DNA of 32,000 nucleotides from Okeania sp. (GCF_035285525.1 NZ_JAYKGW010000224.1:4125-36124); one strand, 5' to 3'; counted from the first letter of the stretch, positions 6,918-26,980 are shown. Notes: generated by a model from the letters alone, not told the origin. Numbers and translations: made by a program.

Positions 6918-7010
6918 CAGGACTTACACAGATACCACATATATAACGTTTAAAACTCCATGCCCATGGAGTTTTTTAACTCTATACATAGCACCTTTGC
7001 ATTAGTCCTG
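6918..7010. mobile_element. MITE-like element, family 2 (termini CAGGACTTAC(A/G)CA ... TGC(A/G)TTAGTCCTG)
   Basis: Terminal inverted repeats plus an internal palindrome AAAACTCCATG-CC-CATGGAGTTTT. Related copies lie at 15145-15264, 17737-17852 and 17859-17961. Confidence 0.65.
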
Positions 7011-7122
7011 ACACAAATAAAATATGATTGCTATATCAGTTATCAATAAACCAATTCAAACAACCAAATAAAATATCGAGCTATAGAACCATACCTTCCC
7101 TTTTCTTTCTTCCTTGCTTCCC

Positions 7123-7707
7123 TCAAACTCTAGCAAGATTATTTTGAACCATTTCCTCTAATTGTTTACGAGTCAGACAACGACGTTCAGAACAATAAGC
7201 CATTAAATTAACACCATTCATCATTCTTACCGTACTAACTCTAACCCGAAAATCATCAGTCAAAAACCAACAACGTTCTTGTCCTTGATTTCTTTCATAT
7301 TCTGTATCAATAGTCAAGACTCCATCAGCAGCAAAATGATACCTACCCACCACCGGAATACCCTCAACATAACCACGGTTACGCAAAAATTTTCCACTTC
7401 TACCAATTTCAGAACTTGGAATATCAACTAAAATAGCAGCATAATTTGGATTAGGTTCATCATCATTATCTAAATTATCTTGCCAATTAAAACTTGCACC
7501 ACCCCTTGCTAAAGCTGGATTTACTTTTTGCTCTTCACAAACGGCGATAACTTTAGGGTCATCTTTTGCTAAAACTTTGACAATTAAATTAGATTCTCCC
7601 GACTCATCAGGAGCAGAATCAAAATGATGAACAGTACGTTGAGAAAACCATGTTCCCTCACTTTTAATAAAAAAATCCATCATTGTCATTGGTGGTGTTA
7701 ATTTCAT
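7123..7707 (-). CDS. cpcS: Phycobiliprotein chromophore lyase, CpcS/CpeS family
   Basis: The N-terminal signature FFIKSEGTWFSQRTVHHFD and a size of ~190 aa are typical of S-type bilin lyases. GAGG lies 8 nt upstream of the ATG at 7707. Confidence 0.8.
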   Translation of the reverse strand: MKLTPPMTMMDFFIKSEGTWFSQRTVHHFDSAPDESGESNLIVKVLAKDDPKVIAVCEEQKVNPALARGGASFNWQDNLDNDDEPNPNYAAILVDIPSSEIGRSGKFLRNRGYVEGIPVVGRYHFAADGVLTIDTEYERNQGQERCWFLTDDFRVRVSTVRMMNGVNLMAYCSERRCLTRKQLEEMVQNNLARV

Positions 7708-8138
7708 TTTTTTTACCTCTAAAATTTTGTTAATTAACTAGCTCTTAGCTTTTAGCATTTAGCTATCAACTCTTAGTAGCTCTAAATTAAAATTATTTAC
7801 TTCTAAAAGTAAAATTTTCTTCTCAAAAATAATCTAGTTCCTCAATCAGTGCTTTTTTAGGAATATGCCCCAGATTTTTAGTTAAGAAAAATCAACAAAA
7901 ATATAGTTGATAATCATAACATTATAAGATAAATCAAATGGAGACTTTATAAATAGATAATTAACAAATCTATATATAGAATCCTAAATAGATTGTGAAA
8001 TTTTCTCCTAGAAGTTTGGTTTCCTAACCTAATTTTTCCTTGGGTTTGGAAATAAAACGGCTACATTTTTTGTCATAAATCATTTACGATTGCTATATAC
8101 ACAATTCCATTGTAAATACTAAATTATCTCTAGCTAAA

Positions 8139-13169: not shown

Positions 13170-13628
13170 TAGGGCTTGCTGATTAGATCTAAAAGTATTC
13201 ATAGATAAAAATTTTAGTCTTTTTAGAGTCAGAAAAAGTGCAAATTTTTAGGCTGTTTAGGTTCAGGTATCTTAACATTTTACATTAACTAGAACAAAAA
13301 AATTAAGAAACTATTTTTTCAACTACTTCTTCTGTAAATTATCTAAATTCTTACTCTTAACTAAGGTTGGCTGATTTATCGGGAACCGTAAAAGTCTTTT
13401 AATAGTAAGGAGAATCCTGCCATCCTGCCATCCAGGAGTCAGGAAAATCACACAAGAGGTAGTTAGAAGAATTATCCCTTGATTTACGGTTCCCGAAAAA
13501 TCGGCTAATTATGGCAGAAAATCCTAGACTTTTTAGCTTGAGAGGCTTAAAAGCTGATACTTTTGACCCACCGAAAAATGCTCAAAAGTTTATCTGTAAA
13601 GACTTTTATCTTTAATCACCAAGCCCTA
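13170..13628. mobile_element. Composite of family 1 MITE halves in head-to-head orientation with a nested family 4 element (13370-13505; termini GATTTATCGGGAACCGTAAA / TTTACGGTTCCCGAAAAATC)
   Basis: TAGGGCTTGCTGA at the left end and TCACCAAGCCCTA at the right end. The inner inverted repeats were read directly. Confidence 0.6.
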
Positions 13629-18318: not shown

Positions 18319-19644
18319 ATGCAAACATTCGTATTTATATGGTTGGGTCAAGTATTTTCTCTATTAGGTTCCAGTCTAAGTGAATTTGCTCTAGCAGTAT
18401 GGGTATATCAAACAACAGGTTCAATTACCCACTATGCTTTATTGTCTTTATTCATTCATTTGCCTAGTATCTTTATCTCTCCATTTGCTGGTGCGATGGT
18501 GGATCGTTGGAGTCGCCGTTGGGTAATGATTGTCAGTGACTCAATGAGTGGAGTAACAGCATTAGCAATAATGTTTTTAGTCTTCTCCGGGCAACTACAA
18601 GTTTGGCATATTTATGTAGCAGTGGGTATTAGTTCGGTTTGCAATGCCTTTCAATCACCAGCTTATATTTCTGCAATTTCCCAACTTGTGCCAGTACAAC
18701 ACTTGAATCGAGCAAATGGTATGGTACAAGGTGCAATAGGAACTGCTAGAATTATTGGTCCAAGTATAGCGGGATTATTAATAGCCAAAATTCATATTCA
18801 TGGGATATTATTAGTAGACTTTAGTACCTATCTCCTAGCATTTTTCACTTTATTAACTGTCAAATTTCCTACCAGACAACAGAAACATATAAGACGAAAA
18901 GTAAATATTAAATATTTATGGCAGGAAGTTGTTTCCGGGTGGAATCATGTGGTGGTTTCTACTGGTTTGCGCCAGTTAACAATTTTCTTTGGAGTTGTCT
19001 ATTTAAGTGCAGGAGTATTGCAAGTTTTATTTTTGCCAATGGTATTAAGTTTTGCTTCGGAAAAAGAATTAGGAATAGTGATGTCTGCTAGTGGTATAGG
19101 AATGTTATTCGGCAGTATCATGGTTAGTTTATGGGGATGTTCTCAACGTAGGATAGAGGGAATTTTATTTTTTGTATTTATTCAAGGATTATGTTTCTGT
19201 TTAGCAGCATTAAAACCTGCTGTTATTGTCATTGGAATGGGTGGTTTTGGTTATCTATGTTCCCGGGCAATTATTGTTAGTTTGAACCATACTATTTGGC
19301 AACAAAAAGTACCTCAAAATTTACAAGGACGAGTATTTGCTTTGCAGAATATGATGGAAAAGTGTTTGTTAGTAATTACTCACCTGAGTGTGGCGCCTTT
19401 AGTACAGTTTATGTTTAAGCCTTTGATGAGTGAAAATGGTATTTTAGCAAGTAGTATCGGCAGAATTATTGGAGTTGGAGATGGCAGAGGAATGGCTTTG
19501 TTATTTGTATTGATCGGTTTCTTGAATATTGGAGCAGTATTAACTGCCTATCGTACTCCAGAGTTGCGACGGGTGGAGAAAGAATTGCCTGATGTTGAGA
19601 GATTGAAAGTCGATGATACTGAAGGTTTTATCAATGCAGGATAA
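18319..19644 (+). CDS. MFS transporter (DHA3/EntS-like efflux type)
   Basis: 441 aa with ~12 predicted TM helices. The MFS loop motif GAMVDRWSRRWVMIVSD lies between TM2 and TM3. Confidence 0.9.
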   Translation: MQTFVFIWLGQVFSLLGSSLSEFALAVWVYQTTGSITHYALLSLFIHLPSIFISPFAGAMVDRWSRRWVMIVSDSMSGVTALAIMFLVFSGQLQVWHIYVAVGISSVCNAFQSPAYISAISQLVPVQHLNRANGMVQGAIGTARIIGPSIAGLLIAKIHIHGILLVDFSTYLLAFFTLLTVKFPTRQQKHIRRKVNIKYLWQEVVSGWNHVVVSTGLRQLTIFFGVVYLSAGVLQVLFLPMVLSFASEKELGIVMSASGIGMLFGSIMVSLWGCSQRRIEGILFFVFIQGLCFCLAALKPAVIVIGMGGFGYLCSRAIIVSLNHTIWQQKVPQNLQGRVFALQNMMEKCLLVITHLSVAPLVQFMFKPLMSENGILASSIGRIIGVGDGRGMALLFVLIGFLNIGAVLTAYRTPELRRVEKELPDVERLKVDDTEGFINAG

Positions 19645-19685
19645 TTCTTCATTAATGGATAATTGATAATGGATAATTGATAATT

Positions 19686-20025
19686 ACCTATCCTTAAAAG
19701 CTATCTCTTATAAAGTTTTAGCCTTATTTGGGTTTGTGGCAAAAAAAAGTGCAAGTTTTTAGGTTTGAGTGAGCAGAAAATTAGAATTTTCGGGTAGACA
19801 AGTACATAAAAATTAAGAGAAAATTATTCCTATCAATTTGTCTGTCTTCCCCAGAATTGAAGAGCGTAGGGGTTTGGTCTCCAAACCCTCTACAAACTAG
19901 GAATTTTCGCTCTTTTCTAATGGCAACCTTATTCTCCAAAGCAAGCAGATTTGATATTAGGGATGGGTTCCTTCCTTCTCAGATTTCCCAAAGTTTCTGA
20001 CACTCTGTTTTTTCGCTAAACCCTA
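19686..20025. mobile_element. Family 1 MITE with degenerate left end and a nested family 5 element
   Basis: The right terminus is TTTTCGCTAAACCCTA. The interior is colinear with other family 1 copies, interrupted by GGTTTGGTCTCCAAACC...CAGATTTGATAT. Confidence 0.5.
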
Positions 20026-20085
20026 CTTGGGTTTGGTCTCCAAACCCCTACAGTTTTTTCTCACAAATCATTTATGATTTTTAAA

Positions 20086-20232
20086 TAGGGCTTGCTGAAT
20101 AAATCTAAAAGCTTTAATAAATATAAAGTTTTAGCCTTTTTATATCGAAAAAAGTACCTAGTTTTTGGTTGTTGTTGTCTTAAAATGATCAAGTTTTAAC
20201 CCTGACTATCAGAAAGTTTGGCCGTGACAAAT
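20086..20232. repeat. Family 1 MITE left half (variant shared with 18063-18190)
   Basis: TAGGGCTTGCTGAATAAATC..., colinear with the sequence at 18075-18190. Confidence 0.5.
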
Positions 20233-20274
20233 AGTCTAAATTGTTCCCTACTCCCTACTCCCTAATAGATAATA

Positions 20275-21111
20275 ATGTACAAAACTCAAGCAGCAGATAC
20301 AACAATAGAAGCTGAAAAAATCTGGTTTAAATTGATAAGCAAAATGCCTATAGAAACCAGAATTATGCAACATCATAGAGCATCTATTCAGTCACAACAA
20401 ATTTGGTGGGATTTATTTAAACAGGAACGTAAAAATTTAACAAATAAGCAATTAAAAATAGAGTATATCAAGTTAATATTAGGAGAAGAATATTGTTTAA
20501 TAAATAAATTAATTGATACAGATTTTATGATTATTTCGGAAATAGATTTAGCTATAAATATTGGGAAAATATTAGATGATTTGTACATTCCTTATTATCT
20601 AAGTGGTGGTCTTGCTAGTTCTTTCTGGGGAGAACGGAGACAAACAGAAGATGTTGATATGGCAGTAATTTTAGAACCAGAAAAAGTACCACAATTAATA
20701 GCAGCTTTATCAACAGAATTTTATGTTAGTGACATTGCTATAGATGATGCTATGAGTGGTCGTACTAATACTTTTAATATTATTCACTTGGCATCCGTCA
20801 TTAAGGCTGATATTTATTCTATTCAACAATCAAATAATTTTGATTTTTCCGCAATATCGCGCCGTCAACAAGTGGAATTATTTTCCACAAATCAATTTAT
20901 TTATATTGCTACTCCTGAAGATATTGTTTTACAGAAATTAAAATGGTACAAAATTGCAGATGATTATTCTCAAAAACAATGGCGCGATGTATTAGGAATC
21001 TTAAAAGCTAGACAACAAATATTAGATTTTGACTATTTGAAATTATGGAGTAATTATCTACAATTAACGCCAGAATTAGAAAAGGCTTTTGATGAAACAA
21101 ACTTAACTTGA
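20275..21111 (+). CDS. Nucleotidyltransferase-fold protein (pol-beta/MNT-like superfamily), function unknown
   Basis: The G[SG]-x(n)-DxD signature is YLSGGLASSFWGERRQTEDVDMAV. A third acidic strand is NIIHLASVIKADIY. There is a ~100 aa helical N-terminal extension. Confidence 0.7.
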   Translation: MYKTQAADTTIEAEKIWFKLISKMPIETRIMQHHRASIQSQQIWWDLFKQERKNLTNKQLKIEYIKLILGEEYCLINKLIDTDFMIISEIDLAINIGKILDDLYIPYYLSGGLASSFWGERRQTEDVDMAVILEPEKVPQLIAALSTEFYVSDIAIDDAMSGRTNTFNIIHLASVIKADIYSIQQSNNFDFSAISRRQQVELFSTNQFIYIATPEDIVLQKLKWYKIADDYSQKQWRDVLGILKARQQILDFDYLKLWSNYLQLTPELEKAFDETNLT

Positions 21112-21591
21112 TATTGCTAAACTAAGGAAACTCTATTGGGATGTTCAAAAAATAGATATTGACTAATTTCTTTCATGCCAAAACCTGTGTATTTTCTTAC
21201 CTCTGGTTCGTGGAAACCCAAGACAATATCTTTTTGCTATATATAGCAATCTTTCGGAACGGAAATATTTGATAACTTTCTAATATAAATAGGGCTTGCT
21301 GAATTATTTATCAAAGTTTTTACGGGCATTGCTTTCAGCATTTATAGATACTAAGAAAGTACCAACTTTTAGGTGATTCCAGCTTAAAAATCTACGATTT
21401 TGAGCCAAACTAGGGGTAAAAAATTAAGGGAAGATTCTTCTGGCTACTTCTTCTCTGATTCCCATTCCTCCTAAATTCTGGATTCACCGATTCTGGCTCC
21501 TCCCCTCTACTAAAAGACTTTTTCCGCAAACCCTAAATAGTGTTTACTCAAGGTTTGTTTCAGGTCTTCTATTTCAGATTTGCCAACAAAA
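21064..21591. repeat. Long direct repeat A: copy of NTase 3' end + xisI 3' remnant + xisH fragment (with ~380-bp internal deletion and a MITE insertion)
   Basis: Colinear by eye with 24014-24695. TTAGAAAAgGCTTTTGATGAAACAAACTT..., ...TTCTGGTTCGTGGAAACCCAAGACAATATCTTTTT, GCTATATATAG..CTTTCGGAACG and ...TCTTCTATTTC.GATTTGCCAACAAAA are shared. Confidence 0.85.
21290..21535. mobile_element. MITE, family 1, inserted into repeat A (filled site; the empty site is at 24646-24652)
   Basis: TAGGGCTTGCTGA ... TCCGCAAACCCTA. TAAATAG is present on both sides (21286-21292 and 21534-21540) but only once in the paralogous sequence ...GTAATATAAATAGTATTGACCC at 24639-24660. Confidence 0.85.
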
Positions 21592-21654
21592 ATATGATTC
21601 ATTAATTACTAAAAATTAGAGCCACTCAGCAAAAGTTTTTTTTACAATCAAAAC

Positions 21655-22719
21655 TTATCTTATTAAAGCAGGTGGTAAATCTTTAAAAGATGCACCTGCT
21701 CCATTATAAAGTGGTAATCCAAAAATATTTGGAGTCTCACAATGAGTAGGTCTGGGAAAACAAAAATTACTTAAATTATTGGCTGCAATAAAGAATAAAC
21801 GCTTCCTTTTTTGTGGCGTTCCATAATCAGTAGCTAGTAACTGTTTATGAGTAATTTCATATCCTATATTATTAAATGATTTATAAATTTCTTCTATCAT
21901 ATTAGTAGCTTTAACCTGAGCTAAACCATAAACATTTTCCATAACCACAATTTCAGGTTGTAATTCCTGAATATGAGCCACATAATCTTGATATAAAACA
22001 CCTAATGGATCATTAGTTGCAGCTTGTTTACCAGCAACACTGAATGGCTGACATGGCGGCCCCCCAATTATAATGTCAGGTTTTTTTCCTATTTTTTCTA
22101 GCACTATTTCAGGTTTTAAATCTCTAATATCTGCCTTGAAAAAATTCCATTTTGGGCGATTTTTTTTGATAGTTTTTTCCACAAAATCTTCTATATCAGT
22201 AGAAAAAGCAGTTTCAAAATTAATCCTTTCATTTGATGCTTGCTCGAAACCTAAATCTAGTCCTCCTGCTCCAGTAAAATATGAAGCTATTTTCAATATT
22301 CTACTCTTATTTTGTCTTTGAAAATAACGATTAATTTCTCCAGCAATAGCTTTCCCTAATCTCACTGGTACCGCATTACCAATTTGCTTTTGTACTTGCC
22401 CTAAAGTACCACAAAACTGATAATTTATAGGAAAATCTTGTAAACAAGCAGCTTCCCTGGGAGTGATATATCTATCCTCTATAGGATGAACAAATTTATT
22501 AAAAATATGCGCTGTTACTGTTAGAGAAGGTTTATCCATTTCTAGTCTAATTAAACGCATATTCGGACCCCCTGTTTTTTTAGCTCCTTTCCTAACAAAA
22601 CTTTTGTGTTGAAGTCGAGGGGGTAGATTACCCATTTTACCTCCAGGGGGGAGATTTTTTATCCTTTCTAATACAATTCCTGTATATTCTCTAGTTTCGT
22701 GGTTTACTACCTCTATCAT
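21655..22719 (-). CDS. DNA (cytosine-5) methyltransferase with circularly permuted motif order (IX-X-I-IV-VI-VIII)
   Basis: TPREAACLQDFP (aa 86-97) and QIGNAVPV (112-119) precede YFTGAGGLDLGF (147-158), GGPPCQPF (219-226), ENV (260-262) and QKRKRLFFI (303-311). The C-terminus FPRPTH...FKDLPPAL and the N-terminus VVNHETR... look like the two halves of a split target-recognition domain. Confidence 0.85.
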   Translation of the reverse strand: MIEVVNHETREYTGIVLERIKNLPPGGKMGNLPPRLQHKSFVRKGAKKTGGPNMRLIRLEMDKPSLTVTAHIFNKFVHPIEDRYITPREAACLQDFPINYQFCGTLGQVQKQIGNAVPVRLGKAIAGEINRYFQRQNKSRILKIASYFTGAGGLDLGFEQASNERINFETAFSTDIEDFVEKTIKKNRPKWNFFKADIRDLKPEIVLEKIGKKPDIIIGGPPCQPFSVAGKQAATNDPLGVLYQDYVAHIQELQPEIVVMENVYGLAQVKATNMIEEIYKSFNNIGYEITHKQLLATDYGTPQKRKRLFFIAANNLSNFCFPRPTHCETPNIFGLPLYNGAGASFKDLPPALIR

Positions 22720-23225
22720 AGTTCAAAATCTCTTAAAATTGGCTCTTCTATTGTTATTATATAATCAAAAATCCTTCTCATTTTTTCCTGTTTCAGGACA
22801 TTAAAACCTGAGAGATTTTCAACATCTTCTTCATATCCCCACAAAATTTTTAGGAAAGGAGAAATATATTCTTCGCCGTGACGATATGCTGGTAAATTAG
22901 AGATTAGAGCAGTCTTTACTTCCCGATATTCTTTGTAATTAGAAGCAATTTTTAAGACTTGGTATATACCTTTTTTAATATCATCTGTTCTATCCATACC
23001 TACACTGGTTTTACTATCGCTAATTGACTCTCGAATTGGCCATTTATCTATAGTTTTAGCGATCGCAGGTGGCGAACCACTGGCATTTGATAAGTAATAC
23101 ATTTTATTATTTTTATCCCTGTTTTGATAAGCTGTTTTTGCTTCTAACCAAGTTTCTACAAAACTAAAGACTATTTGTTGATTTTTAGGAGTAATAATAA
23201 GTTCTACAGCGCTTTCAAAAGGCAA
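22716..23225 (-). CDS. Hypothetical protein; probable C-terminal fragment of a decayed restriction endonuclease
   Basis: The stop overlaps the methyltransferase ATG (ATGA). The track start is TTG. The frame is open a further 11 codons upstream, back to a TAA. No family was recognised. Confidence 0.5.
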   Translation of the reverse strand: MPFESAVELIITPKNQQIVFSFVETWLEAKTAYQNRDKNNKMYYLSNASGSPPAIAKTIDKWPIRESISDSKTSVGMDRTDDIKKGIYQVLKIASNYKEYREVKTALISNLPAYRHGEEYISPFLKILWGYEEDVENLSGFNVLKQEKMRRIFDYIITIEEPILRDFEL

Positions 23226-23295
23226 GAGTTTGGCATATACTTTTCCTAGAGGAAGAATTTATTGATTGTGCATATAAAGAGCTGAACTTGCATTT

Positions 23296-23709
23296 TTAAG
23301 TTGAGATGTTTGTTAGTATTACTTTCTGATGAGGTTTCTCTATTTCGATATTTTGCAGATAAAAAAGCATAGGATAAGTTATTAAAGGAGCAGATTTAAC
23401 TTCTCCAAAAATTAGCAATCCTTCTTGATGATATAAAATAGCATCTGCTAACTCTGTACCTCCAATCGAAACTACTTTTTCTAAATTATTTGATAATTTT
23501 TCTATAAATTTGAGGATAACTTCACTGCTTAATTTTCCAATAGCACCAGATTGCGGTTTAGCTGCTTTTTGGTAAGTCCAAATTTCTCCTTTTTCATAGC
23601 AAGGAGAACAAAGGTTTATAAATCCTATATGAAAATTATAGGGAGCTGGAAGATTGTCGCAACTTTCAATATATGTTTCTATTCCTGATGTCGCATCTAT
23701 AATAAGCAA
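23296..23709 (-). CDS. Hypothetical protein; probable central fragment of a restriction endonuclease carrying a PD-(D/E)xK-like motif
   Basis: ELADAILYHQEGLLIFGEVK reads as D-x13-EVK. The TTG start overlaps the upstream 61-aa ORF by 44 nt in another frame. Confidence 0.5.
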   Translation of the reverse strand: MLIIDATSGIETYIESCDNLPAPYNFHIGFINLCSPCYEKGEIWTYQKAAKPQSGAIGKLSSEVILKFIEKLSNNLEKVVSIGGTELADAILYHQEGLLIFGEVKSAPLITYPMLFYLQNIEIEKPHQKVILTNIST

Positions 23710-23851
23710 GAGACATTACCACATCAAAACAAAAAGCATGAGTATGGGAATTTTTATTACTAGCCCAATCTAATAATTTTTCAATGGTTGAACACCAAGG
23801 ATATTCTGATAAAGGCGGTTTACCTTTGAATTTTTCTATAGCTAAATTCAC
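23666..23851 (-). CDS. Short ORF; probable N-terminal fragment of the same decayed nuclease gene
   Basis: ATG-initiated 61 aa ORF. Its frame runs into the 137-aa ORF frame with a 1-nt offset near 23700. Confidence 0.3.
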   Translation of the reverse strand: MNLAIEKFKGKPPLSEYPWCSTIEKLLDWASNKNSHTHAFCFDVVMSLAYYRCDIRNRNIY

Positions 23852-23915
23852 TATTTTCCTATCTTTTTAATTAAATAAAATGGGATATATTTAGCATACA
23901 ATACAATAAAATAGA

Positions 23916-23942
23916 CTAATACGCATTTAAAATGCGTATTAG
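23916..23942. promoter_or_regulatory. Perfect 13+1+13 palindrome CTAATACGCATTT-A-AAATGCGTATTAG upstream of the R-M cassette
   Basis: Exact reverse-complement arms were read directly. It lies 65 nt upstream of the first nuclease fragment. Confidence 0.35.
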
Positions 23943-24013
23943 CAATTAAAAAGTAAAAATTAATAAGAGTTTTGTTGTTAAACAGGTATAAAATAAATAT
24001 GTCGTTTAAATGC

Positions 24014-24695
24014 TTAACAGCTTATTAGAAAAAGCTTTTGATGAAACAAACTTGACTTGATATTGCTAAATTGAAAAACTTTGTTTCCACTAAAAAAATT
24101 AGTAGGGCAGATATTCAAAAAATGAATATTAGCTAATTTATTTCATACCAAAATCTGTGTATTTTCTTACTTCTGGTTCGTGGAAACCCAAGACAATATC
24201 TTTTTTAGGAATACCTTCTTTTACTAATTCATCAGCAATCCCATCTTCCGTATTATCGCACTGAATCCAAACTTGATTATTTATAATTTCCACATGAATT
24301 AGAAAACTATGAAAATGTTTTTGCTCTATCCATCCTTCGGAAATAATCACATATTGCCCATTTTTATTGTCAAAAGCAGCACGATTTTTAATCGGAACAT
24401 TGGCATATTTAATATCAACATAAGGCTGCATAACTTTACAGATAATCATCTGATAATTTTCTAGTTTATCCATTGTGTAATTTCCTCTTTTTCTGGATTA
24501 AAAATAATTAGTTTTAAGCTCTTATCCTCTAGCAACATTTGACCGATTTATAAACTGAATAATCTTTCAAAAACTGCTTTTCTGATTGCTATATATAGGA
24601 CTCTTTCGGAACGAATATATTTGATGACTTTGTAATATAAATAGTATTGACCCAAAGTTTATTTCAAGTCTTCTATTTCCGATTTGCCAACAAAA
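24014..24695. repeat. Long direct repeat B: NTase 3'-end fragment + intact xisI + 3' two-thirds of xisH
   Basis: See repeat A. Homology starts inside a 45-nt copy of the NTase gene end (including its stop) and stops at TGCCAACAAAA inside xisH. Confidence 0.85.
24138..24473 (-). CDS. xisI: XisI (fdxN element excision controlling factor family)
   Basis: 111 aa. MDKLENYQ..., ...GW...H...H..I.N..VWIQCDNTEDGIADELVKEGIPKKDIVLGFHEP are typical XisI blocks. The ATG overlaps the xisH stop, as in canonical xisHI pairs. Confidence 0.9.
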   Translation of the reverse strand: MDKLENYQMIICKVMQPYVDIKYANVPIKNRAAFDNKNGQYVIISEGWIEQKHFHSFLIHVEIINNQVWIQCDNTEDGIADELVKEGIPKKDIVLGFHEPEVRKYTDFGMK

Positions 24696-24878
24696 CTTTT
24701 AACTTCTACTGCTATTTTCTGCCCTTCTTTTTCCGCAGCTAAGATTTTTTCCGCTCCTAAATCAATAAAGATGTCTTTTTGACCAATTTTAAGACTTAAA
24801 GGATCGTCAGTAATTACCCATCCATCTTTGAATTAGTGCTTTTTTAACGCATTCGTGGTAAATATCTTTGGCTGGCAT
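24461..24878 (-). pseudogene. xisH: xisH pseudogene (one frameshift, two in-frame TAA stops)
   Basis: The reading is MPAKDIYHECVKKALI, then a frameshift near 24828-24832. It resumes as KDGWVITDDPLSLKIGQKDIFIDLGAEKILAAEKEGQKIAVEVKSFVGKSEIEDLK, then TAA (24659-24661). It continues TLGQYYLYYKVIKYIRSERVLYIAIRKAVFERLFSL, then TAA (24548-24550), and ends IGQMLLEDKSLKLIIFNPEKEEITQWIN. The span is 418 nt, which is not a multiple of 3. Confidence 0.85.
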
Positions 24879-24933
24879 TTTTAAGAATAAATAATAATTA
24901 TAATTATATCACCAAGAAAAGTATATCTTAGCA

Positions 24934-25219
24934 GTAGGTTGGGTTGAGGAACGAAACCCAACAAAATATAGCGCTATGTACAAGTAAAAAGCCATCTCTG
25001 ACTAAATTGTTGGTTCGGAAATGCAGCACAAACAGAGTTTATACTATTTCTCTGTAACAATGCGCTTAATAATTTTTAGGCAGACCCGAATTTTACTAAT
25101 AGCTGTTATTTTTTATTAAGTGCAACATTAAGTTGAATTGGTATTAGAATTATTCTAACCTAAAATCGTATTATAATATAATATCTATGTTGGGTTTCAC
25201 TTCGTTCTACCCAACCTAC
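24934..25219. mobile_element. 286-bp MITE-like unit bounded by inverted family 3 hairpin modules
   Basis: The left end is GTAGGTTGGGTTGAGGAACGAAACCCAAC and the right end is GTTGGGTTTCACTTCGTTCTACCCAACCTAC, close to its reverse complement. It ends 27 nt before the cobA-hemD ATG. Confidence 0.55.
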
Positions 25220-25245
25220 GTTTTTACTAATAATTAATAACTAAA

Positions 25246-26781
25246 ATGAAAGCATATATTATTGGAGCTGGACCCGGAACTAAAGAATATTTAACGGTCA
25301 AAGCATATTCCCTAATTACTCAAGCAGAAGTATTAATTTATGATGCTTTAGTTGATAATTCTATTTTAGAATTAGCACCAGAAAATTGTTTGAAAATAGA
25401 GATGGGTAAACGTGGCGGTAAACCCAGTATTTCTCAGTCAGAAATTAATAGTTTATTAGTAGAAAAATGTCGTTTAGGAAAACAAGTAATTAGATTAAAA
25501 GGAGGCGATCCTTTTATTTTTGGTCGGGCTACTTCAGAGATTCAAACATTAATTGAAGCTGGTTGTGATTTTGAAATTGTTCCAGGAATTTCTTCTGTTT
25601 TAGCTGCACCTTTATTGGCAAATATTCCGCTGACAGACCCGGTAATGAGTAGAATTTTTTTAGTCTTAACTGCTCATAATATCGAAGCATTAGATTGGGA
25701 AACAATATCTAAAATTGAAACTTTAGTAATTTTAATGGGAGGAAAAAATTTAGGTCAAATTTTACATCAGTTATTAAGACATCAAAGAACCCCCCAAACT
25801 CCTGTTGCTATTATTCAAAATTGTGCCACTCCTAAACAACAAATTTGGATTGGTACCTTGAGGGATATTGCTCAAAAAACTTATGCTGAATATTTGTCGC
25901 CTTGTGTGATAATTGTAGGAGAAGTAGTTAGATTAAGAGACTATTTAAAATATCCAAATAATATGATTAAAGAAAACTCAGAAGCAAAAACAGAAATAGC
26001 ACCTTTAGCAAATAAAACTATTTTAGTAACTCGTTCCGCAGGGCAGTCTAGTAAGTTTACCGAACTTCTCAAAAAACAAGGATCAAAAGTAATTGAAATG
26101 CCAGCTTTAGTTATTACTTCACCTTCAAGTTGGCACGATTTAGACATGGCTATTAATAATATAAATAGTTTTGATTGGTTAATTTTGACTTCAACAAATG
26201 GAGTAGAATATTTCTTTGCCAGATTAACAGAAAAAGGTAAAGATACTCGCGCTTTAGCTGGAGTAAAAATAGCAGTAGTTGGTAAAAAGACCGCAGAAAG
26301 TTTGCAGACTTTTGGTTTAACTCCAGATTTTATTCCACCTAATTTTGTGGCTGATTCTTTGGTGGCAAATTTCCCAGAAAATTTGAATGGAAAAAAGGTT
26401 TTATTTCCCAGGGTAGAAACTGGTGGTCGAGAAGTATTAGTAAAGGAATTAAATAGTCAAAATGCAGAGGTAATAGAAGTAGCTGCTTATGAGTCTAGTT
26501 GCCCAGAAAATATCGCACCGGAAGCTTTATTAGGTTTACAGAATTTGCAGATAGATGTTATTACTTTTGCTAGTTCTAAAACTGTGAGAAATTTTTGTAA
26601 TTTAATTGAAAAAAATAAGGATAAGTTGCCTGAAAATTGGTTAGAAAATATTTGTATTGCTTCTATCGGACCTCAAACTTCTGAAAGTTGTCAAAGTTTA
26701 TTAGGTAGAGTTGATGTCGAAGCTAAAGAATATACTTTAGATGGTTTGACTTCAGCTATTATTGATAAAATTCAAAAGTAA
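25246..26781 (+). CDS. cobA: Bifunctional uroporphyrinogen-III C-methyltransferase (CobA/SUMT) / uroporphyrinogen-III synthase (HemD)
   Basis: The N-terminus AYIIGAGPGTKEYLTVKA...VLIYDALV...RLKGGDPFIFGR is SUMT. The C-terminal ~250 aa (ILVTRSAGQSSKF...LILTSTNGV...FASSKTV) is HemD-like. Confidence 0.9.
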   Translation: MKAYIIGAGPGTKEYLTVKAYSLITQAEVLIYDALVDNSILELAPENCLKIEMGKRGGKPSISQSEINSLLVEKCRLGKQVIRLKGGDPFIFGRATSEIQTLIEAGCDFEIVPGISSVLAAPLLANIPLTDPVMSRIFLVLTAHNIEALDWETISKIETLVILMGGKNLGQILHQLLRHQRTPQTPVAIIQNCATPKQQIWIGTLRDIAQKTYAEYLSPCVIIVGEVVRLRDYLKYPNNMIKENSEAKTEIAPLANKTILVTRSAGQSSKFTELLKKQGSKVIEMPALVITSPSSWHDLDMAINNINSFDWLILTSTNGVEYFFARLTEKGKDTRALAGVKIAVVGKKTAESLQTFGLTPDFIPPNFVADSLVANFPENLNGKKVLFPRVETGGREVLVKELNSQNAEVIEVAAYESSCPENIAPEALLGLQNLQIDVITFASSKTVRNFCNLIEKNKDKLPENWLENICIASIGPQTSESCQSLLGRVDVEAKEYTLDGLTSAIIDKIQK

Positions 26782-26892: not shown

Positions 26893-26943
26893 GTTGGGTT
26901 TCGTCCCATGCTGCGCAATGCTAACGCAAACAACCCAACCTAC
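26893..26943. repeat. Family 3 hairpin element (GTTGGGTTTCG...CAACCCAACCTAC)
   Basis: Stem GTTGGGTT / AACCCAAC with an inner GCGCAATGCTAACGC region. Same family as 9312-9345. Confidence 0.7.
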
Positions 26944-26980
26944 GTCTGTTACATCATTTTAAAATGAAACAATCCAGTAG

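Follow-up and report, generated by a model that had tools for sequence, protein, structure and literature searches.

Insertion of a restriction-modification (R-M) gene complex with a long duplication of its target was reportedly described by Nobusato et al. in 2000 (Gene 259:99). Such insertions were later surveyed across bacteria by Furuta, Abe and Kobayashi (2010, NAR 38:2428; PMC2853133). The criteria given there were the presence of homologs of both the restriction gene (R) and the modification gene (M), an insert shorter than 20 kb without integrase, transposase or prophage, direct flanking repeats longer than 30 bp, a comparison genome carrying the repeat once and no insert, and a repeat that is not a dispersed multi-copy element. 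In Table 3 of that survey the left and right repeats are 86-100% identical and, among the cases compared here, at most ~423 bp long, and the only cyanobacterial case is that of Microcystis aeruginosa NIES-843, with a repeat of 88 bp. We have analysed a stretch of 32,000 nucleotides from Okeania sp. (family Microcoleaceae; GCF_035285525.1, NZ_JAYKGW010000224.1:4125-36124), hereafter the window, in which a predicted Type II R-M cassette lies between two long direct copies of host sequence comprising the end of a putative nucleotidyltransferase (NTase)-like gene, xisI and part of xisH. The best reading of this locus, to which we give a probability of about 0.58, is that an R-M unit was inserted with a long duplication of its target and that the locus has since undergone prolonged decay. 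An earlier note on this DNA had described an R-M unit between long direct copies, with a deletion and a mobile element as later events in one of them, and this structural reading held. It had also considered the phenomenon undescribed in cyanobacteria, an argument that fails given the Microcystis case in the 2010 survey.

Direct repeats flanking the cassette

The two repeat copies were direct and collinear, and showed 88-96% identity in a block alignment. They are listed below together with the two later changes in the left copy and the host genes to which they belong.

21075-21591, no strand assigned: left repeat copy, decayed, 517 bp; 3' end of the NTase-like gene, spacer, the final 22 codons of xisI and two xisH pieces separated by a miniature inverted-repeat transposable element (MITE)
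24024-24695, no strand assigned: right repeat copy, full length, 672 bp; last 37 nt and stop codon of the NTase-like gene, spacer, whole xisI and 3' 56% of xisH
21235-21236, no strand assigned: deletion junction in the left copy, where the equivalent of right-copy positions 24206-24587 (382 bp) is missing, as placed by block offsets and alignment
21293-21533, no strand assigned: MITE in the left xisH remnant, 241 bp; 7-bp target duplication TAAATAG at 21286-21292 and 21534-21540
20275-21111, plus strand: NTase-like gene, an intact open reading frame (ORF) of 278 aa, whose part from 21075 on (37 nt and the stop codon) is the start of the left repeat
24138-24473, minus strand: xisI, intact, 111 aa; PF08869, E=3.7e-39
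24461-24878, minus strand: right-hand xisH, a pseudogene frameshifted by a 1-nt insertion close to codon 17 and carrying two in-frame stops; the repeat end at 24695 falls inside the gene
25246-26781, plus strand: cobA/hemD fusion gene (Pfam), the conserved right anchor of the locus

Four ungapped blocks made up the alignment: 21075-21121 corresponded to 24024-24070 (96%), 21140-21235 to 24110-24205 (91%), 21229-21292 to 24581-24644 (88%) and 21534-21591 to 24638-24695 (88%). The BLAST E-values of these flank blocks lay between 1e-14 and 1e-39 (search space 0.8 x 1 kb). The repeated unit of 672 bp started 37 nt before the stop codon of the NTase-like gene and ended at codon 62 of xisH. Despite having lost 382 bp and gained 241 bp, the left copy still measured 517 bp, so that both copies are far longer than the 30 bp of the survey. 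These results bore out the claim of the earlier note that the two flanks are direct copies of NTase-xisI-xisH sequence; pairwise alignment had been set there as a test on which the claim could fall, and it revealed homology well beyond short repeats. The note had placed the repeat starts at 21064 and 24014; strict homology began only at 21075/24024, and the extra 10 nt offered just a weak 'TTAAC' match.

Shifts in the block offsets indicated three differences between the copies, namely a 21-nt indel in the spacer 3' of the NTase-like stop codon, the 382-bp deletion and the 241-bp insertion. The deletion, for which the note had given ~380 bp and the same junction, took out codons 1-89 of xisI and about the last 40 codons of xisH, and left a xisI remnant that has lost its stop codon. 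The insertion, correctly named a MITE before, is a genuine one, as a second full copy at 1379-1618 (78.6% identity) has its own 7-bp target duplication, TACTTAG. Members of this family are ~240 bp long, end in GGCTTGCTGAA...TTCCGCAAACCC and are flanked by 7-bp target duplications. A partial copy was located at 13446-13625, and related pieces were found in five Okeania and Dapis loci (L002, L007, L010, L013 and L030; comparison loci are numbered with the prefix L), in one of which, L007, a copy breaks the NTase-like gene. In the window the MITE sits in the repeat, outside the insert.

Only two copies of the repeat were present in the window, which contained no further copies of xisI, xisH or the NTase-like gene. 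Logan contigs of run SRR19514071 were 100% identical to window positions 20046-21231 and 21478-24201, thus reproducing both cassette junctions in an independent assembly. The longest identical run between the copies was 34 nt (21202-21235 and 24172-24205). A crossover in this run would remove exactly 2,970 bp and would give xisI the left-copy tail, which has no stop codon. Excision by recombination between the repeats, as suggested in the note, is possible, but it is constrained by the ~90% identity of the copies and by the length of this run.

Regarding the host genes, the protein encoded by the NTase-like gene was 100% identical to the NCBI entry 'hypothetical protein [Okeania sp.]' and matched no Pfam, NCBIfam or PADLOC family. 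The label 'NTase' is putative, its basis being a G-S...DxD-like motif and a weak PDB match over that region (5uvd, 'nucleotidyltransferase-like protein', E=0.27). The lesions of the right-hand xisH, on which the earlier note had been silent, were judged by three-frame translation and alignment to the intact xisH of L012 (PF08814, E=5e-54), to which the window gene showed 91% protein identity over all 138 residues; the xisI-xisH segment was 93.6% identical to that of L012 at the nucleotide level. With the Pfam domains of both families (PF08814 in the L012 ortholog of xisH) and with adjacent and overlapping genes, the two constitute a XisH/XisI pair. The cobA/hemD gene was syntenic in L002, L007, L008, L010, L012, L013, L020 and L030. 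Between xisH and cobA, an element of ~300 bp was found at 24917-25230, bounded by inverted repeats (GTAGGTTGGGTTGA / TCTACCCAACCTAC); a third arm of it lay at 26931-26960, and related sequence was present in L007 and L008. In distant contexts (L022, L024 and L026, around 7000-7840) similarity to the window was confined to the NTase-like gene +/- 4-12 nt, as in a minimal cassette, and in L002 (9678-11134) this gene was flanked by 310-nt direct repeats with 94-100% identity. In other Microcoleaceae (L022 5345-7837 and L026 5292-7837) the NTase-like gene was located downstream of a distant xisH-xisI pair (35-43% identity), separated from it by a DUF4058 or Uma2 nuclease-family gene, so that the NTase-like gene and xisHI are found together in another arrangement as well.

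The R-M cassette and its occurrence at another locus

The segment between the repeats (21592-24023; 2,432 bp) carried a methyltransferase gene, three fragments of an endonuclease gene and a hairpin, and was composed as follows.

21644-23872, minus strand: conserved mobile R-M core, 2,229 bp, extending 21 nt beyond the R start and ~11 nt beyond the M stop
21655-22719, minus strand: C5 DNA methyltransferase gene M, intact, 354 aa; PF00145 in two stretches, TIGR00675, PADLOC MTase_II
22716-23851, minus strand: pseudogene R of a predicted Type II restriction endonuclease; 1-nt insertions at gene positions 150 and 541, CAG>TAA at codon 197, 4-nt overlap with M
21592-21643, no strand assigned: 52 bp between the left repeat and the core, on the M side; not shared with L015, L021 or L029
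23873-24023, no strand assigned: 151 bp between the core and the right repeat, on the R side; holds a terminator-like hairpin at 23915-23943 and is not shared with L021 or L029

The motif order of M was circularly permuted, motifs IX and X (residues 88 and 114) standing N-terminal to I, IV, VI and VIII (residues 148, 222, 261 and 303), with all catalytic motifs present. Its Pfam and TIGRFAM matches fell accordingly in two stretches in swapped order, and its match to the PADLOC models PDLC03381 and PDLC03237 was contiguous. The three R fragments belong to a single gene, as they were collinear over residues 1-376 with an intact 376-aa gene located directly upstream of the M ortholog in Marinobacterium iners (L014), a gene that matched PADLOC REase_II (PDLC03440, E=6.7e-38). 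The three lesions, two +1 frameshifts and one nonsense mutation, were called against the intact 377-aa ortholog P0121/L021, with 91% amino acid identity. The intact Marinobacterium ortholog gave no Pfam or PDB match, PADLOC REase_II being the only family indicated for R. From this family membership, and from its adjacency to and co-orientation with M, R is predicted to be a Type II restriction endonuclease gene that is now a pseudogene. The arrangement of R upstream of M, co-oriented and with the 4-nt overlap, was kept in L014, L021 and L029. R and M form a genuine operon, to judge from the collinear Marinobacterium gene and from the intact pairs in L021 and L029. The ratio of nonsynonymous to synonymous divergence (dN/dS) from the L021 ortholog was 0.24 for M and 0.19 for R; such a low value for R against an intact ortholog indicated that its loss was recent relative to the divergence of the cassette lineages.

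Intact R-M pairs (377-aa R and 354-aa M) were found in two Okeania-like genomes, L021 (Logan SRR7608425) and L029 (JGI 3300019849), and L015 shared the M end of the core. The core of the window (21644-23872) was 93.6% identical in nucleotides to L021 1994-4220, where, as in L029, it was located between two Ser/Thr kinase-WD40 genes, at a locus unrelated to that of the window. The R-M unit is thus mobile. No long target duplication surrounded the cassette at the L021/L029 locus; L029 was considered as a second case of this kind and rejected, since the flanking kinase-WD40 genes are old paralogs with 49% amino acid identity. The M protein was 70-74% identical to proteobacterial homologs, and homologs at this level of identity number thousands in metagenomes and Proteobacteria. 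Relatives of the R-M family with 68% nucleotide identity were also observed on a 12.4-kb Acinetobacter indicus plasmid (NZ_CP044453.1 844-2204) and in a 14.4-kb phage-like element of Vibrio cyclitrophicus (PQ189389.1 1478-3438).

The insert contained no other mobility genes, and its only long ORFs were M and the R fragments. No tRNA gene or integrase ORF was found in it, and no Rfam family in 19500-25400. Terminal inverted repeats pairing 21592-21660 with 23850-24023 were absent, as they were from the ends of the core in L021 and L029. A transposon-like R-M unit was consequently rejected, the cassette ends having neither terminal inverted repeats nor a short target duplication. So was an island inserted at an att site by a site-specific integrase, there being no integrase and no tRNA gene and the repeat consisting of 672 bp of ordinary coding sequence. 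The claim of the earlier note that the DNA between the repeats carries only the cassette was too strong, as the core leaves 52 bp on one side and 151 bp, with the palindrome, on the other; neither piece gave a match indicating its origin in any relative or comparison locus. The contrast of k-mer and GC composition that the note had proposed gave no signal of foreignness (31.3% GC in the cassette vs. 33.7% in the window; tetranucleotide distance z=0.41). The hairpin at 23915-23943, on the minus strand and 64 nt upstream of the R start, has a perfect 13-bp stem, a T-rich tail and a fold z-score of -5.9, and looks like an intrinsic terminator. The intact cassettes of L021 and L029 do not have it. 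A role as a C-protein operator was rejected, given the absence of a C gene and the position of the hairpin beyond the conserved core.

Related loci and the origin of the duplication

In many genomes of Okeania, Trichodesmium and Dapis, cobA/hemD was preceded by the NTase-like gene or its remnants, with a hypervariable interval between them. The NTase-like gene and cobA were almost adjacent in L008 and L020; L013, L010 and L007 had a CoiA-like nuclease gene in the interval, L003 and L012 a CBAH amidase gene, and L002 several STAND NTPase genes. The same xisI-xisH pair was found in the interval only in L012 and L002, with 92-94% nucleotide identity to the right copy; in both it was present as a single copy, in the same orientation, without R-M genes and between the NTase-like gene and cobA. 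The joint between the NTase-like gene and xisI was altered by a deletion in L012 and by a 5.3-kb insertion in L002. L012 was unbroken across the position of junction 1, inside xisH, and all relatives with a complete NTase-like gene were unbroken across that of junction 2. None of the ~25 related loci had two xisI-xisH copies without R-M genes; relatives of that kind, carrying both flank copies and no R-M genes, had been named in the earlier note as evidence that would speak for an unrelated, older duplication.

Both window copies had a derived base in common, reading ATTGCTAAA where 9 of the 9 relative genomes retaining the stretch (10 sequences) had ATTACTAAA, and at a second position both read GCTATATATAG where L012 and L002 had GCTATATAGAG. 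These derived substitutions, shared by both copies and absent from all relatives, indicated that the copies are sister sequences, duplicated in the window's own lineage. The left and right copies differed at 22 of 204 comparable sites, and each differed from L012 at a similar or smaller number, distances which, at 204 sites, are only suggestive for dating and polarising the duplication. Most of the differences affected a single copy, with 8 changes peculiar to the left and 10 to the right, a pattern that decay of copies once duplicated would be expected to produce. The divergence between the repeats (~0.11) was well below the synonymous divergence of cobA from other Okeania (0.29-0.44), and that of xisI and xisH was 0.19, which indicated a duplication that is old but younger than the species splits.

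On the reading that we prefer, the ancestral order would have been the NTase-like gene, xisI and xisH on the opposite strand, and cobA/hemD; the contiguity of NTase 3' end, spacer and xisI, seen independently in both window copies, argues that this sequence was the insertion target. A 2.43-kb fragment with a two-gene Type II R-M operon, R upstream of M, would have entered by illegitimate recombination, a single event leaving the 672-bp target on either side of the insert. A likely route would be the joining of the fragment at two breaks or nicks ~0.67 kb apart, the interval being filled in or replicated, with no recombinase, transposase, tRNA gene or terminal inverted repeat taking part. The copies would then have diverged to ~90% identity, and the left one would have lost 382 bp and gained the MITE. 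The two frameshifts and the nonsense mutation would have inactivated R fairly recently, the right-hand xisH would have been inactivated too, and M would have stayed intact, probably persisting as an orphan methylase, to judge from its sequence. We infer both that one event made the two junctions and the duplication and the molecular route it took: the structure fits the statement of the earlier note that the insertion itself produced the duplication, and the cause has to be weighed against recombination between alleles and an earlier tandem duplication.

Several observations weigh against this reading. The exact empty site, that is, an uninterrupted NTase-xisI-xisH arrangement as sought on the suggestion of the earlier note, was not found in ~25 loci by genome, metagenome and protein-based searches and an exact look-up of XisI; the single copies in L012 and L002 have other indels. 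When the two copies and L012 were compared in pairs, the left-right distance was nominally the greatest, and this, together with ~10% divergence of the repeats, would mean that both copies evolved faster, in the manner of pseudogenes. The insert includes about 200 bp (21592-21643 and 23873-24023) that belong neither to the target nor to the core, so that the inserted DNA exceeded the minimal unit. The cassette occurs at the other locus without a long target duplication, which is therefore not obligatory for this unit. Finally, long flank duplications surround cargo other than R-M genes at the same locus in relatives, which hints at general host recombination and not at a process driven by the R-M genes.

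The duplication might instead stem from recombination with DNA of a related strain and not from the chemistry of insertion, an explanation that we consider unlikely. It can take two forms. In version (a), a donor would have had the cassette inserted 37 nt before the NTase-like stop, and a fragment with the cassette, the NTase 3' end, xisI, xisH and following sequence would have been transformed into the recipient, with homology anchoring its right end and an illegitimate joint linking its left end to the interior of the recipient xisH (homology-facilitated illegitimate recombination). In version (b), a circle with the cassette and one repeat copy would have integrated by a single homologous crossover. 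The ~10% divergence and the roughly symmetrical unique changes would then reflect divergence between donor and recipient, with no long wait needed; at one site (TTACCTCT/TTACTTCT) the left copy matched L002 and the right copy L012; and the 52-bp and 151-bp flanks resemble DNA brought from an earlier site. In relatives, moreover, blocks at this locus bring fragments of former neighbours: a cobA 5' fragment of 72-98 nt, attached to xisH in two genomes (L002 and L012) and adjoining the NTase-like gene in a third (L003), ends in all three near the same position (window-equivalent 25320-25329), and there are 53-316-nt NTase 3' fragments around the CBAH amidase gene, as well as the 310-nt repeats around the NTase-like gene in L002. 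However, two to three derived bases shared by the window copies against all relatives restrict the possible donors to very close relatives. Version (a) calls for an illegitimate event in each of two genomes rather than a single one, and a donor-type locus, in which the cassette would interrupt the NTase-like gene without any duplication, was not found.

An earlier tandem duplication of the whole NTase-xisI-xisH module would fit the structure of the window alone as well as target duplication does. The R-M fragment would then have taken the place of the DNA in between, reaching from the 5' 44% of the first xisH to the second NTase-like gene, of which only the last 37 nt and the stop codon would have been spared. 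The interval is indeed rich in segmental duplications in relatives, with the 300-400-nt NTase 3' repeat of L003 and the 310-nt repeats of L002, but neither a second xisI-xisH copy nor a second complete NTase-like gene was present at this locus in any relative. This course is improbable, as it would take two events together with a 1.1-kb deletion coinciding exactly with the insertion. Least credible is an assembly artefact, a mis-join at the 34-nt run concealing an uninterrupted NTase-xisI-xisH-cobA chromosome and a circular or tandem cassette element of 2,970 bp. The source is a metagenome-assembled genome, and the Logan k=31 contigs (L001 and L016) stop exactly at the shared run (21231 and 24201), so that they do not independently confirm the link across it. 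On the other hand, 34 nt is far below normal read lengths and large assembly k-mers, many single-nucleotide differences distinguish the two sides, and a left-copy xisI without a stop codon fits a dead remnant better than the end of an intact gene; the junctions 21591/21592 and 24023/24024 would be real even if there were such a mis-join.

The flank duplications in relatives also allow a broader, tentative proposal, which we would not yet favour: that the NTase-cobA interval of Okeania, Trichodesmium and Dapis is a hot spot gaining many kinds of cassette with long (50-670 bp) flank duplications, the cargo including the R-M pair, the CoiA-like nuclease, the CBAH amidase, the STAND NTPases and even the NTase-like gene. 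Besides the window, a 98-nt cobA 5' repeat surrounded the CoiA-like gene in L002 (17097-18586), a long direct flank repeat with non-R-M cargo; a 300-400-nt NTase 3' repeat surrounded the CBAH amidase gene in L003 (10547-13604); and 72-nt and 53-nt repeats surrounded other cargo in L012 (2560-5396), with identities of 88-96% throughout. If this were true, these polyploid, repeat-rich cyanobacteria would gain genes by a general, host-driven process of insertion with long target duplication, for example through staggered integration of allelic DNA acquired from relatives, and such duplication would not be a property of R-M units. For such a general, R-M-independent process the present data give no more than a hint. 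The same cassette elsewhere without a duplication, and other cargo with flank duplications at this hot spot, provide material for testing the origin of such insertions.

Comparison with known systems

Homology-facilitated illegitimate recombination, reportedly described by de Vries and Wackernagel in 2002, could give one homologous and one illegitimate junction, with foreign DNA beside a duplicated anchor. It usually yields a deletion or a replacement and not a duplication of 0.67 kb, and nothing at the Okeania locus shows a transformation event.

The Okeania structure shares with the class of Furuta et al. (2010; PMC2853133) an R and M pair without integrase, transposase or tRNA gene, shorter than 20 kb and lying between direct repeats much longer than 30 bp. 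These repeats match single-copy host sequence in relatives, and their ~90% identity is inside the range of Table 3 there. Of the criteria given in that survey, the empty-site genome lacks a counterpart here, and as to dispersal the repeat is present twice within the 32-kb window. Unlike the cases compared from that table, in which repeats reach ~423 bp at most, the Okeania repeat is 672 bp long and spans parts of three genes, and the locus is heavily decayed, with a deletion, a MITE and pseudogenes. The host is a filamentous marine cyanobacterium, in contrast with Microcystis and its 88 bp, the sole cyanobacterial case listed there. The Okeania locus is thus a well-resolved addition to a known, mechanistically unexplained class of gene mobility, with an unusually long repeat; it leaves current understanding unchanged. 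Particular to this case are the 672-bp duplication across parts of three genes, the advanced and well-resolved decay, a permuted methylase outliving its endonuclease, and a second site of the cassette without duplication. On our preferred reading, a single window would display R-M entry, target duplication, endonuclease loss, survival of the permuted methylase as an orphan, and repeat erosion.

Natural circular permutation of C5-methyltransferases has been described for M.BssHII and a few others, with a 'type H' topology (Xu et al. 1997, cited in PMC5944983). By its motif order, and with all catalytic motifs in place, the Okeania M shares this rare M.BssHII-type topology; its partner endonuclease corresponds to no Pfam family or solved structure. 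With M intact (dN/dS 0.24) and R disabled by three lesions, the pair resembles the orphan methyltransferases left behind by decay of their restriction genes.

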